DNA of 64,000 nt, from positions 1-64,000 of the IMG/VR virus record IMGVR_UViG_3300028274_000006. The stretch is one strand, 5' to 3'. Position 1 is the first letter of the stretch, and the number at the start of each line of letters is the position of its first letter. The position numbers and the translations under genes are program-made. Source of the stretch: a virus. Below are positions 12,590 through 39,016 of this stretch, piece after piece. The notes below the pieces were generated by a model. The model had not been told where the DNA came from. It saw only the letters and a list, made by a program, of their open reading frames with translations, and searched no databases.

Positions 12590-12600
12590 TGTGCTATAAT
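12590..12600 (+). promoter_or_regulatory. Extended -10 promoter for groES-glycosyltransferase operon
   Basis: TGTGCTATAAT; same 11-mer at 34441 and 46877. Confidence 0.65.
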
Positions 12601-33603: not shown

Positions 33604-33624
33604 GTAGACTTGTTGCAGATTAAC

Positions 33625-33728
33625 ATTGAGTGTTTTGTGCGGGATGCAGCTGGAGAAAGAGTGGTAGGACACTGCGCGAAAGCGAACCAGTAGGAGTGCA
33701 AATCTCAGTGCCGCACCAAGCACTTAAT
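33625..33728 (+). ncRNA. Array unit 1: tRNA-like RNA in an 18-bp closing helix
   Basis: 33625-33642/33711-33728 pair; CGC-GAAA-GCG hairpin; GAG-TGCAAAT-CTC T-arm-like; ...CCGCACCA. Confidence 0.7.
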
Positions 33729-33739
33729 AGAACTTTAAC

Positions 33740-33888
33740 ATCGGATATTTTGTGGGTATGAGGAATAGGCTCAAACTCTAGTAGATATATTAGACGTTAA
33801 GGAGGACGCGAACCCAGCGGAGGATATAACGCAGATCGGACTGCGAGGGTAGTACAACGAATTGCCTCATACCTACTAAGTATCTGAT
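33740..33888 (+). ncRNA. Array unit 2: structured RNA in a 24-bp closing helix
   Basis: 33740-33763/33865-33888 pair 23/24; GGAATAGG D-loop-like; internal hairpins such as CGCAG/CTGCG. Confidence 0.7.
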
Positions 33889-33900
33889 TGCTCATTAACA
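33889..33900 (+). promoter_or_regulatory. boxA-like antitermination motif (related motifs at 33614-33625, 33729-33740, 34100-34111)
   Basis: TGCTCATTAACA vs E. coli rrn boxA TGCTCTTTAACA (11/12); all four motifs end in TTAACA. Confidence 0.6.
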
Positions 33901-34100
33901 GAAGATTGAGAGTGTGGATGGCGGAATAGGTAGACGCTAGTTTGGAGTTAGATTGTTTGTATCGTGTCTTAATGCTAGAACTTCAGCAGTCCAAACAATC
34001 ATGCAAGGTGACTATACGAGTCGGAAACCTACAGAAGTGATTCGTTCACGGTTAAACAGATAATCTCGGCAAATCCTTGCTCCACACTCTTAGTCTTTTG
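33899..34100 (+). ncRNA. Array unit 3: tRNA(Leu)-like RNA with anticodon-loop and T-loop insertions
   Basis: Acceptor GTGTGGA/TCCACAC extended to 20 bp; D arm TGGCGGAATAGGTAGACGC; T stem GCAAGG/CCTTGC split by a 59-nt insert. Confidence 0.75.
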
Positions 34101-34111
34101 ACTAATTAACA

Positions 34112-34412
34112 TAATACCGACTGGAGTTTAAACTGCTGAGGTCGGTTCACAGAAAAGGAAGCAGGCTTACAAGATTGATGAGTCTAGCAGCATCTAGAAT
34201 GGCGTCTTGCATAAGTAATTGTACGAAAGCGGGTAGATGTACCTTATAAAGATTGGAGGACTACCCCCCCAAGATTGAAAAACTATCTTGGTTGCTTTGA
34301 CCCGATTAGTAATGTGATCGGCTATGCAGAAGTAATCTTTAAACGGAGTACCTTAGATATTCTAGTGGCGTTTGCATTAACCTTTGGGTTAAACCATAAA
34401 CTATAAGGTAAC
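34112..34412 (+). ncRNA. Array unit 4: ~300-nt multi-stem RNA
   Basis: ORF-free; TACCTTATA/TATAAGGTA, AAAGATTG/TAATCTTT, CCAAGAT/ATCTTGG, CCGATTA/TGATCGG, TTAACC/GGTTAA. Confidence 0.55.
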
Positions 34413-34440
34413 AATTTAAATAGCATGAAGTAAAGCACGA

Positions 34441-34510
34441 TGTGCTATAATAACAATATTGCAACATAATACCGAGACGGAAGTTAAAAACCCATCCCTG
34501 GGTTGCAATA
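34441..34510 (+). promoter_or_regulatory. Extended -10 promoter and leader hairpin
   Basis: TGTGCTATAAT, then TATTGCAAC/GTTGCAATA 9-bp stem. Confidence 0.6.
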
Positions 34511-34539
34511 AGTAATGTTTAGTAAAGAAAGGTAAAGTC

Positions 34540-34791
34540 ATGTCAAAAGACTTCCAACCAGCGACGTTAGAAAACGTCAACCATGAACAAATAGAGAGTG
34601 TTTTTAATACTCTTGTAGGTCAATCTATGGAGCTTATAGAAGCTATAGGATTGTCCGAAAAACAAGAAAAGGCTTTTAAGGCTCAATTAAAGCGACTAAT
34701 TTATACTTCATTAGATGATGTATTTAATATTGAGTTTGATGTTGATTCAACTAGTTATGCTGGAATTCACGACAATGTCAATAATAGCTAG
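34540..34791 (+). CDS. Hypothetical acidic protein
   Basis: GAAAGGT RBS; 83 aa. Confidence 0.65.
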   Translation: MSKDFQPATLENVNHEQIESVFNTLVGQSMELIEAIGLSEKQEKAFKAQLKRLIYTSLDDVFNIEFDVDSTSYAGIHDNVNNS

Positions 34792-35518: not shown

Positions 35519-35701
35519 ATGAACAAAACCAACCCAGAAAGTAGACCAATAAAAAAATATCAAGTTTGGCAAAGAGAACATAGTAGCACTTGGTATTTCA
35601 ATGAGTTTGATTCGTTGAAAGAAGCCATAGAGTCTGAAAGATATGGTGATTTTTTTATTACTGCATTAGTTAATTACGAAGTTAAGGAGAGAAATGAATA
35701 A
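35519..35701 (+). CDS. Hypothetical protein
   Basis: 60-aa ORF. Confidence 0.5.
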   Translation: MNKTNPESRPIKKYQVWQREHSSTWYFNEFDSLKEAIESERYGDFFITALVNYEVKERNE

Positions 35702-36736: not shown

Positions 36737-36889
36737 ACCAACTTGAAAAACACTTAGAGAAACTACGCCAGGATTGGAAACGCTATCCCTCTCGTAGAAA
36801 AGCAATAGAGATAATAGCTAAGAACTTAAAGAAGAAGCAACCAAGAAAACTTATAGACGATGTAAAGGAAACGCTGCTATAATGACTAC

Positions 36890-36964
36890 AGCCGCCGCAG
36901 GTTCTCTCCAGATACTTCAGGCGGCTTCTAAAGAAGGGCGATTCGGGCAGGGTCGTCCTTTTTT
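36890..36964 (+). ncRNA. Candidate ~75-nt sRNA with anti-RBS loop
   Basis: TGCTATAAT at 36875-36883; AGCCGCC/GGCGGCT hairpin; terminator 36934-36964. Confidence 0.65.
36934..36964 (+). terminator. Intrinsic terminator
   Basis: AAGGGCGATTC/GGGTCGTCCTT stem plus T-run. Confidence 0.75.
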
Positions 36965-36981
36965 ATTGGCTTAAACTGCTA

Positions 36982-37010
36982 TTGACAGTTGTAAACATAT
37001 ACCTTATACT
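36982..37010 (+). promoter_or_regulatory. Near-consensus sigma70 promoter (probable early promoter)
   Basis: TTGACA-17nt-TATACT. Confidence 0.8.
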
Positions 37011-37043
37011 ACAATTAGTAATAAACATAAAAGGAGAGAACTT

Positions 37044-37187
37044 ATGTCAATACCTATGAACGGAGACTGCTACCAAGACTTTAATAAAGTAGAGACTGCT
37101 GAACCAGACGATACTTGTTATGAGGACTGGAAGTTTGAGCAAGAATACGAACCAGTAATAGCTACAATTTATGGGGAGGACTGCTAA
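37044..37187 (+). CDS. Small acidic protein (47 aa)
   Basis: AAGGAG RBS; MSIPMNGDCYQD...YGEDC*. Confidence 0.6.
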   Translation: MSIPMNGDCYQDFNKVETAEPDDTCYEDWKFEQEYEPVIATIYGEDC

Positions 37188-37467: not shown

Positions 37468-37475
37468 GAGAAATT

Positions 37476-37820
37476 ATGAGAGATTTTACTAGAAAACAAC
37501 TCAAAGAAATGAGCAGAACAAAGCTAGTTGATATTGCATATAAAGCTATTCAAAAACAACGCCGCATGAATAGAGTTATGTTTTATGATGTTCCAAAAGA
37601 AATAATCCAAGAGTTATTCCAAGAATCATTTAATTATAAATATAAGAGAGATGAGTTTTTTGCTGGGATGAGATTTATTGAGGAATATGGCAAAAGATGT
37701 GTTGATGAATTAAATGAAATAAATGATTGGGAAGAGTATGAGGATGTTAAAGAATCATGGGGTTATGCAAATTGGTATAAATCATTAAGAGTGAGTTACC
37801 CAAATATAAATGATAAATAA
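37476..37820 (+). CDS. Hypothetical protein containing the A/B junction repeat
   Basis: AGGAG RBS; 3' part equals 1-143. Confidence 0.7.
   Translation: MRDFTRKQLKEMSRTKLVDIAYKAIQKQRRMNRVMFYDVPKEIIQELFQESFNYKYKRDEFFAGMRFIEEYGKRCVDELNEINDWEEYEDVKESWGYANWYKSLRVSYPNINDK
37674..37816 (+). repeat. Direct repeat copy 2
   Basis: 142/143 identical to 1-143; period 37673 bp. Confidence 0.95.
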
Positions 37821-38196
37821 CGAAGATAAAGAACTTATTAATAAATCAATAGAAGGAGACAACTATATGTCTAAAGATTTTACCGAGGCTAACTATGTAA
37901 TCAGCTTCATTAACGGACAACCTGGATTAGTGGTAAGAGGAGAAATGCCAGCAGAGATAGAGGAAAGAATGGAAGCTATACTTCCCTACTTCAAGAAGTT
38001 TAGAACCGCAGTAGAGAAGGCAGGTGCTAGTAAATCAGATGCACCTAAAACCAGAGGCATGATGGTTAAGTGTGAGAAGTGTGGATCAGGAATGGATCTT
38101 AGATCAGGCTACTCAAACAAAACCAAAAAGAACTGGAGTGGATACTTCTGTCCTAATAGCACAGATGATGATAAACACCCCGTGGTATGGGCGTAA
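37810..38196 (+). CDS. Hypothetical zinc-ribbon protein
   Basis: Homolog of 137-493. Confidence 0.7.
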   Translation: MINNEDKELINKSIEGDNYMSKDFTEANYVISFINGQPGLVVRGEMPAEIEERMEAILPYFKKFRTAVEKAGASKSDAPKTRGMMVKCEKCGSGMDLRSGYSNKTKKNWSGYFCPNSTDDDKHPVVWA

Positions 38197-38393
38197 AGGA
38201 CAATATGATTAATACAAAAACATGGGTGCCTATCAACGTACTAAGCAAGAGAACAGGTATAAGCCGACAATGGCTAACTAAGAAGGCTAAGCAGGGAGTA
38301 ATAAGAACAACTAAGCCTTTTGAGGAATCAACACTCAAGTACTACAACTTAGAAGATGCAATGAAACATTTTGATGTAGTTGACACTAAGTAA
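38187..38393 (+). CDS. Small HTH-like protein
   Basis: LSKRTGISRQWL. Confidence 0.6.
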   Translation: MGVKDNMINTKTWVPINVLSKRTGISRQWLTKKAKQGVIRTTKPFEESTLKYYNLEDAMKHFDVVDTK

Positions 38394-38488
38394 ACAACGT
38401 GCTTAAATAAACATAACCTGAACAAAAAAGAAACGTGCGGAAACTCAGACACAAGCAGGTGGACCAGGTTACAAAAGGAGAGAACAAA

Positions 38489-39016
38489 ATGAAAGCCAAA
38501 ACAAGAATTAAAAAAAGGAGCAGAGATGCCAAAGGCAGATTCACCATTATGTCGTGGAAAGACAGGTTGGTTGCCCTCACTATTTTGTTGGGTACTATGG
38601 GGTGGGGTTATCAGCTTCATATTAATCGTAGTGTTCCTAGTGAATGTGGCACTCCTATCATTGAAGTTAGAGAAGTTAGTGCATCAGAATCAACACCAGA
38701 TTTATACGTTCCACCCTCAACAGTCCTTAAGCAGATGAACCTACGCCCTGGGCTAATGAGTCGTATCAAAAACGTCTTTGGAGAGGGATGGACTTATGCT
38801 GCTGAGCTAATTTGGAGAGAGTCCTCTTTTAATGAGTTTGCCATTAATCCTACTAGTGGAGCTTGTGGACTAGCCCAAGCCCTACCTTGCGGGAAAATGG
38901 AGTGTAACTTAGAGGATATAGACTGTCAGTTAGAGTGGATTAAAAACTATACAGATGAAAGATATGGAGGTGCAGAGAACGCACTACTCTTTCATACGAA
39001 AGTAGGATGGTACTAA
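38489..39016 (+). CDS. Membrane-anchored lytic transglycosylase-like (SLT) protein
   Basis: TM helix; RESSFN..AINPTSGACGLAQAL; RYG...GWY. Confidence 0.8.
   Translation: MKAKTRIKKRSRDAKGRFTIMSWKDRLVALTILLGTMGWGYQLHINRSVPSECGTPIIEVREVSASESTPDLYVPPSTVLKQMNLRPGLMSRIKNVFGEGWTYAAELIWRESSFNEFAINPTSGACGLAQALPCGKMECNLEDIDCQLEWIKNYTDERYGGAENALLFHTKVGWY

Follow-up and report, generated by a model that had tools for sequence, protein, structure and literature searches.

A compact promoter-hairpin-terminator unit at the end of an early operon of a marine phage probably encodes a small RNA starting at position 36890, and the hairpin loop of this candidate RNA is complementary to a short tag at the ribosome-binding sites of early genes. 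It is quite possible, though we stop short of calling it probable, that the RNA acts in trans by pairing with the tagged early start regions and thereby lowers their translation; this reading draws on complementarity, conservation between two sibling genomes, and energy ranking. The window analyzed here is the whole stretch of 64,000 nt, which comprises positions 1 to 64,000 of the 74,772-bp IMG/VR virus record IMGVR_UViG_3300028274_000006; positions beyond the window are given as record positions. Features lie on the plus strand unless both strands are named.

The DNA of this record is present in 24 seawater/marine metagenome DNA runs, and no RNA run was among those listed as carrying it. One strand carries all of its genes, among them those for terminase, portal, capsid, tail, glycosyltransferase, and peptidase. 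The terminase is not above 33% identical to that of the closest cultured relative, a search of the record confined to tyrosine integrases found none, and no Hfq or ProQ domain is encoded in the record. Two related gene sets are present, which are ~77% identical across conserved genes. The final 127 bases of the record (74646 to 74772) are exactly those of 37472 to 37598, and the first 102 bases (1 to 102) are exactly those of 37674 to 37775. Because the record starts and ends within a stretch exactly common to both gene sets (~304 nt, 37472 to 37775), the simplest reading is that it represents two sibling genomes of ~37.4 kb, each circular or permuted, strung together at the exact repeat, where the record joins and breaks. 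A contig from run X22 leads from a second copy of the RNA unit through the common stretch and into 37776 to 38494 with zero mismatches, which closes genome 2. A single-unit relative (G001; 36,378 bp) is collinear with 40.4 to 72.9 kb of the record. The same protein is also found on another assembly, of 75,445 bp, and the join therefore recurs. Phased at the repeat, genome 1 consists of 103 to 37471 plus the common stretch and genome 2 of 37776 to 74645 plus the common stretch. By this phasing, the RNA at 36890 groups with ATG 788, ATG 35694, and ATG 37044 in genome 1, and the second RNA groups with ATG 38489 and record ATGs 72768, 73018, and 74215 in genome 2. A preliminary description of this DNA had referred to two units, which were phased wrongly.

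The anatomy of the unit is as that description had it. An extended -10 element, TGCTATAAT, is present at 36875 to 36883 and is the candidate promoter of the small RNA. Six nucleotides farther on, at the expected +1, begins a GC-rich hairpin in which AGCCGCC (36890 to 36896) pairs with GGCGGCT (36920 to 36926). This 5' stem-loop (36890 to 36926) is predicted to have a 7-bp stem and a 23-nt loop with weak inner pairs. The loop contains AGGTTCTCTCC at 36899 to 36909 and a 19-nt segment (36901 to 36919) that is identical in both copies of the unit; the first 9 nt of this invariant segment (36901 to 36909) form the seed complementary to the tag, GTTCTCTCC. A second hairpin (36929 to 36965) has the makings of an intrinsic terminator, namely a GC-rich stem (36936 to 36944 paired with 36950 to 36958) followed by U6 at 36959 to 36964, and it also ends the upstream operon; it is absent from the output of a simple consensus scan. 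The predicted transcript therefore is self-contained and extends from the predicted +1 (A 36890) to the U-tract (36890 to 36965), about 76 nt compared with the ~75 nt proposed earlier. An 81-nt fold gave exactly two hairpins at -38.3 kcal/mol (z = -6.1), and 0 of 200 shuffles folded as well.

Several other identities were considered for this element. A 30-codon frame (36882 to 36974) passes through it but is not conserved, as the second copy has a different frame of 11 codons, and the small-peptide reading was rejected. By sequence prediction, then, the unit has what is generic to trans-acting small RNAs: its own promoter, an intrinsic terminator, and no conserved frame. No Rfam family reached gathering scores in the window, none reached an E value of ≤10 for 36800 to 37060, and none reached an E value of ≤1 for the second copy. 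A search for tRNAs and tmRNAs was likewise negative. We judged the helix to be of insufficient length for an RNase III site and the strong promoter that comes after the terminator to speak against a nut- or Q-type antitermination site, and both readings were rejected on that judgement.

Related elements occur elsewhere in the record. Extended -10 sequences of the form (TG)TGCTATAAT are found at 12592, 34443, 36875, and 46879 and at record positions 73508 and 73939, on the plus strand only; two copies are directly behind the capsid-gene terminator, in both genomes, and one precedes the first early gene. That gene's leader (34443 to 34540) has a long near-perfect hairpin (~34480 to 34505) right behind its TGCTATAAT promoter. 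In both genomes, long ORF-free and highly structured stretches are located 5' of early genes (33604 to 34440; L002 100 to 730), each behind a TTGACA promoter (32999 and 72180), and neither had an Rfam or ARAGORN match.

The second copy of the RNA unit is in the sibling genome, outside the window (record 73508 to 73620; L002 1473 to 1590; plus strand). Its stem is ACCCGCC/GGCGGGT, and the last 19 loop bases are identical to those in the window (19/19). Between the two copies, 6 of the 7 stem pairs are invariant and 1 has changed on both sides (G:C to C:G); with two sequences only, this single compensatory pair is not significant (240 of 500 shuffles). The UUCUAA linker is kept, the terminator hairpin is longer with matching changes in its arms, and the second predicted RNA is about 100 nt (record 73523 to 73620); predicted lengths over the two phages run from ~76 to 103 nt. 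When the surroundings of the element were compared by blastn, only a 45-nt island aligned, at 91% identity, and the adjoining genes are 72 to 76% identical or unalignable between the genomes. Thus, the self-contained unit is also conserved as an island in the sibling genome. In genome 2 only, a free-standing HNH endonuclease gene (phrog_374, E = 1.5e-55; no Pfam hit) occupies L002 1670 to 2122 (record 73705 to 74157), inserted between the terminator of the second RNA and the next promoter and behind a second terminator-like hairpin.

Searches for further copies were negative. An exact scan with the loop gave 0 matches in viral contigs, 1 in metagenome contigs, and 3 in genome contigs, all of them chance matches without the hairpin context. 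In viral contigs, a gapped stem-plus-seed pattern matched 18 times and the 3' half of the loop 12 times, again all by chance; an unrelated phage of 30% GC with no tag (L094) was among the sources of these matches. A block pattern for the start regions gave 106 matches, none homologous to the record, and a fuzzy search (≤5 mismatches) of 80 TerL-related loci, whose early regions are nonhomologous, revealed no copy. Neighboring proteins were searched as well: no relatives were found for the 114-aa protein, the protein beginning MFTY has one relative, on G001, whose contig breaks exactly before the element, and for the 44-aa protein there are distant relatives on L128 and L129, both without an analogous unit. 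Alignment of sequencing reads yielded no new allele of the element.

To characterize the complementarity, we compared the loop with the start regions of the record. The loop core GUUCUCUCC is the complement of the tag GGAGAGAAC, and all four pairings drawn in the preliminary description are correct. Directly before ATG 37044, in the same genome as the window's RNA, GGAGAGAACTT (37033 to 37043) can pair over 11 nt, including one G:U (-9.3 kcal/mol; rank 3 of 137 start regions and rank 2 in its own genome). Within the upstream operon, the internal gene that starts at ATG 35694 has the site GGAGAGAA (35686 to 35693), which pairs over 8 nt (-11.9 kcal/mol; rank 1 for the window's RNA). In genome 1, which also carries the RNA at 36890, promoter 688 has the gene at ATG 788 as its first gene; the tag there is GAGAGAACC (777 to 785) and pairs over 9 nt, and the block is kept in a diverged leader before a nonhomologous gene. 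In genome 2, promoter 38380 has the gene at ATG 38489 as its first gene; ahead of this start codon, 38477 to 38485 pair over 9 nt with the window's RNA, and the tag GGAGAGAACA (38477 to 38486) pairs over 10 bp with the second RNA (-12.2 kcal/mol; rank 1 for that RNA).

The promoter that follows the terminator is near consensus, as described before: 36982 to 37010, a sigma-70-type promoter of the next operon (TTGACA, 17 nt, TATACT), matches 11 of 12 consensus positions and belongs to a family with TGTAAACA in the spacer. The description of tagged sites as the first genes after TTGACA promoters stands as well, but the -10 element of the promoter at 38380 (TTAAAT) is weak, at 4 of 6 positions. 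The members of this early-promoter family (688, 36982, and 38380; record 72721 and 74154) have TATTGACA, a (T)GTAAACA spacer, TATAcT, and often a leader with AAACATAA; the conserved spacer motif could be a regulator site.

The tag is concentrated at early, promoter-proximal genes. It is present at 7 of 52 early versus 0 of 85 late start regions (Fisher, 9e-4) and, among the early ones, at 5 of 5 promoter-proximal versus 2 of 47 other start regions (8e-6); these statistics overcount because the five leaders are paralogous cassettes that share common ancestry and are not independent. At least 7 Watson-Crick bases with the invariant loop segment are found at 7 start regions (including GAGAGAACC at 777), all of them early, and only 4 to 6 paired bases, which reflect generic GGAG(A), at 119 of the 137. 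The shorter motif GGAGAGA occurs 22 times on the plus strand; 6 of these are ribosome sites, 4 of which come directly after TTGACA promoters. The usual strong ribosome site of the phage is AAGGAGA, and the AGAAC extension of the tag is unable to pair with the 16S tail. Conservation points in the same direction: the leaders behind promoters 688 (genome 1) and 38380 (genome 2) have diverged, yet both keep GAGAGAAC[C/A]AAATGAAA, and the genes that follow are unrelated (a 76-aa membrane-like protein versus a transglycosylase-like protein).

Two further sites resemble these targets. Through G:U pairs and the variable GCAG flank, the start region of the operon's second gene (ATG 37187; 37172 to 37186) also pairs with the window's RNA, at -8.8 kcal/mol, which places it third within its genome; its orthologue pairs less. 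In a distant relative of 32% GC (L128 2817 to 3000), a TTGACA promoter is followed by a 150-nt structured noncoding leader and a homologue of the 44-aa Cys-rich protein; the leader begins with GTTAGAGAAC, which is similar to the tag.

We then ranked 137 start regions by duplex energy together with the opening energies of the RNA and the target, in an RNAup-like approximation. Against the other ribosome sites, the top three for the window's RNA are 35694 (-11.9 kcal/mol), 38489 (-10.5 kcal/mol), and 37044 (-9.3 kcal/mol). The best of the 137 for the second RNA is 38489, at -12.2 kcal/mol. Each RNA thus has its top start region in its own genome, and in both genomes that cognate site bears the tag. 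The seed costs 3.5 to 5.7 kcal/mol to open, as the weak inner pairs partly engage it. The preliminary description had cautioned that GGAG is generic Shine-Dalgarno sequence. This caveat is justified in that GGAG contributes to the match, but the tagged sites do not lead in generic Shine-Dalgarno strength: their ranks among the 137 are 8 to 114 against the 16S tail and 1 to 13 against the RNA. RNAcofold was set aside as a test, as it cannot draw the loop-target pairing with the stem intact.

How much of this complementarity would arise by chance depends on the comparison. By raw duplex energy over the whole plus strand, coding-region sites outrank ribosome sites; therefore, complementarity alone is not unique. 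The top duplex sites on that scale, 24585 and 65961, were rejected as targets, since a 9-nt match is expected ~3 times by chance and the paired bases of these two homologous sites are not conserved. In 5,000 composition-preserving shuffles of the loop, the pairing added up over the five promoter-proximal start regions had p = 0.0002 to 0.003. An 8-mer complementary to at least 4 start regions is found at only 17 of ~74,700 plus-strand positions, and these include both loops. Allowing for the 10 to 20 hairpins open to inspection and for the common ancestry of the leaders, the look-elsewhere chance is ~0.05 to 0.1.

Covariation of loop and tag could be followed in two genomes with two RNA copies, and it is thin because only two copies exist. 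Next to the seed on its 5' side, the window's RNA has G where the second RNA has U. The facing target base is U (37044) or C (788) in genome 1 and A (38489) or A (72768, after a G:U) in genome 2. Read from the sequences, this flank position fits the target's own RNA and not the other in 4 of 4 informative targets (p ~0.06, from base composition). In the orthologous pair 788/38489, C at 785 versus A at 38486 is the only change in the conserved block, and these bases pair with loop G or U. By accessibility-corrected energies, the cognate RNA is favored in 5 of 6 informative cases, by 1 to 2 kcal/mol. In the genome 2 orthologue of the 37044 site (record ATG 74215), deletion of one A from the tag leaves 7 bp. 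On the covariation check that the preliminary description proposed, the two genomes therefore show one intermolecular compensatory change and one orthologous tag that has lost a base.

Four other explanations were weighed against pairing with the tagged sites. It is unlikely, but deserves the most attention among them, that the small RNA is real and has another working target (a host mRNA, a host or phage protein, or another RNA), in which case the ribosome-site match would be incidental to a pyrimidine-rich loop. The invariance of all 19 loop bases extends beyond the 9 that match the tag, and pairing with the tag leaves 10 conserved loop bases (AGAUACUUCA) unexplained. Host mRNAs may be among its targets. 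The generic GGAG also adds to the match; the energies of pairing with the RNA and with the 16S anti-Shine-Dalgarno are correlated (rho of ~0.35). An incidental match, however, does not account for a tag that is confined to early start regions and present at all five promoter-proximal ones, nor for a tag block that is kept in diverged leaders with a single change that fits the cognate loop.

Distinctly unlikely, in our judgement, is that there is no separate gene here, and that the element is a compound terminator that also protects the 3' end of the upstream early operon, with a -10-like sequence that goes unused. The element does sit exactly at the operon end, where a terminator is needed anyway, and the window's -10 element at 36875 overlaps the last codons and stop of the 49-aa upstream gene. 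In the second copy, however, the -10 element (TGCTATACT, an 8/9 match to TGCTATAAT) is located after the upstream stop codon, and the stem again follows 6 nt on. The -10 element thus tracks the stem and not the stop codon, which argues for a promoter. Moreover, TGCTATAAT is a strand-specific motif, with 5 copies on the plus strand of the record and 0 on the minus strand (~0.5 expected), and 4 of the 5 are between genes or at gene ends. A plain terminator would also leave the 19 invariant loop bases amid unalignable flanks unaccounted for.

We regard it as very unlikely that the conserved motif acts at the DNA level, with GGAGAGAAC either bound by a phage protein as an operator or roadblock or serving the HNH endonuclease as a conserved target or recombination point. 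The 9-mer, counted in either orientation, occurs exactly four times in the record, twice per strand, always in early control regions; its tenth base tends toward agreement within each genome; small HTH proteins are encoded nearby; and the HNH endonuclease gene (phrog_374) is directly behind the second copy only. Against a DNA site, the tag is 0 to 3 nt from the start codon and ~9 to 69 nt from the -10 element, so that its distance is conserved relative to the start codon and not the promoter. The site is not palindromic, and in the RNA gene the motif forms a hairpin loop on a stem with a compensatory change. Finally, a cis-acting leader or attenuator, in which premature termination gives a short transcript and regulated read-through reaches the downstream genes, resembles in layout the 5'UTR-derived ncRNA candidates from ONT-cappable-seq (PMC10914365) and would suit the genome 2 HNH gene, which is behind the terminator without its own promoter, but it is also very unlikely, as the window has a near-consensus promoter 17 nt past the terminator, so that the downstream operon needs no read-through, and no alternative antiterminator fold is apparent.

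Among known systems, the P1/P7 c4 antisense RNA is the closest in mechanism by analogy. It is an RNA of ~77 nt whose exposed loops block translation at a phage ribosome-binding region (Citron and Schuster 1990, summarized in PMC12197685); it is cut from the transcript under its control, acts on one operon (icd/ant), and maintains lysogenic immunity (PMC12197685). Like c4 as portrayed there, the candidate RNA is phage encoded and of similar size, with a loop that, by prediction, is complementary to phage ribosome sites (8 to 11 bp, at sites that rank at the top of 137). In c4, loop and target differ together between sibling phages; for the candidate, in two genomes, one orthologous pair and the 4 of 4 informative flank positions (p ~0.06) fit such a pattern, and one orthologue has lost a tag base. 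Unlike c4 in those accounts, the candidate comes with a promoter and a terminator of its own and is not a processing product of its target's transcript in a temperate immunity region, its tag is on several operons, no tyrosine integrase was found, and the Rfam search gave no match to the c4 family model. The early-gene repression or immunity suggested in the preliminary description fares unevenly. Repression at ribosome sites is plausible, and the sites it named rank best, but immunity is without support, and the analogy to P1 C4 and P4 CI extends to the logic alone: the search confined to tyrosine integrases found none, no Rfam family matches, the unit has a promoter and terminator of its own, and there is no sign of lysogeny.

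Other small phage RNAs also silence early or antirepressor functions by base pairing. The P4 CI RNA is processed from a leader and brings about transcription termination via seqA and seqC, and the P22 sar RNA is cis-antisense and fully complementary; the candidate RNA differs from both in that it would be trans-encoded, with short imperfect pairing at start regions. In T4, RegA and RegB are proteins that carry out posttranscriptional early shut-off at translation-initiation regions, with RegB acting at GGAG. Here the likeness is functional only, and the candidate would be an RNA counterpart of protein shut-off.

In its display of an anti-Shine-Dalgarno loop, the candidate is closest, again by analogy, to Cuckoo/CcsR (alpha-r14) of Alphaproteobacteria, trans-acting chromosomal RNAs with 2 to 4 adjacent hairpins, each with CCUCCUCCC (PMC4615179). 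Both show a pyrimidine-rich anti-Shine-Dalgarno motif in a hairpin loop. The candidate, in contrast, is phage borne and has one seed hairpin with GUUCUCUCC, its tag extends 3' of GGAG, its second hairpin is a terminator in place of a further CCUCCUCCC hairpin, and Rfam gave no match. In virulent Pseudomonas phages, many 5'UTR-derived ncRNA candidates have been detected by ONT-cappable-seq, and short promoter-to-terminator or operon-end RNAs are common in lytic phages and conserved among close relatives (PMC10914365). No target motif was proposed for those RNAs (PMC10914365), whereas a specific regulon of complementary tags is visible here.

Collectively, these data suggest a model in which host RNA polymerase would start at the extended -10 promoter, where the first early operon ends, and produce an RNA of ~76 nt (about 100 nt in the sibling phage) that consists of the 5' stem-loop and the intrinsic terminator. 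As this RNA accumulates, its loop would pair over 8 to 11 bp with the tagged start regions and compete with the 30S subunit, so that the promoter-proximal early genes would be translated less. The AGAAC extension of the tag would provide specificity over the many ordinary AAGGAGA sites, and the seed-adjacent base, which differs between the phages in step with the targets, would make the matching partly phage specific. An anti-ribosome-site function of this kind is plausible but unproven; from sequence we infer that the transcript exists, that it pairs in vivo, and that its effect is to lower translation. More tentatively, and with considerable doubt, we propose that small lytic marine phages possess a "tag and anti-tag" circuit of their own: each early operon would have the tag on its first cistron, an RNA from the end of the first early operon would time early shut-off, and tag and anti-tag would coevolve, so that the RNA could also discriminate against or interfere with coinfecting relatives.

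To our knowledge, trans-acting RNAs of virulent phages against their own early genes are hardly documented; the phage RNA cases known to us (c4, CI, sar, and OOP) serve lysogeny, and we know of lytic early shut-off through proteins. If real, the proposed circuit would explain the odd Shine-Dalgarno extension on the first genes of early operons and would offer an entry point for studying temporal control in uncultured marine phages. A short RNA together with a 9-nt tag would make a compact and portable circuit that is easily tested.
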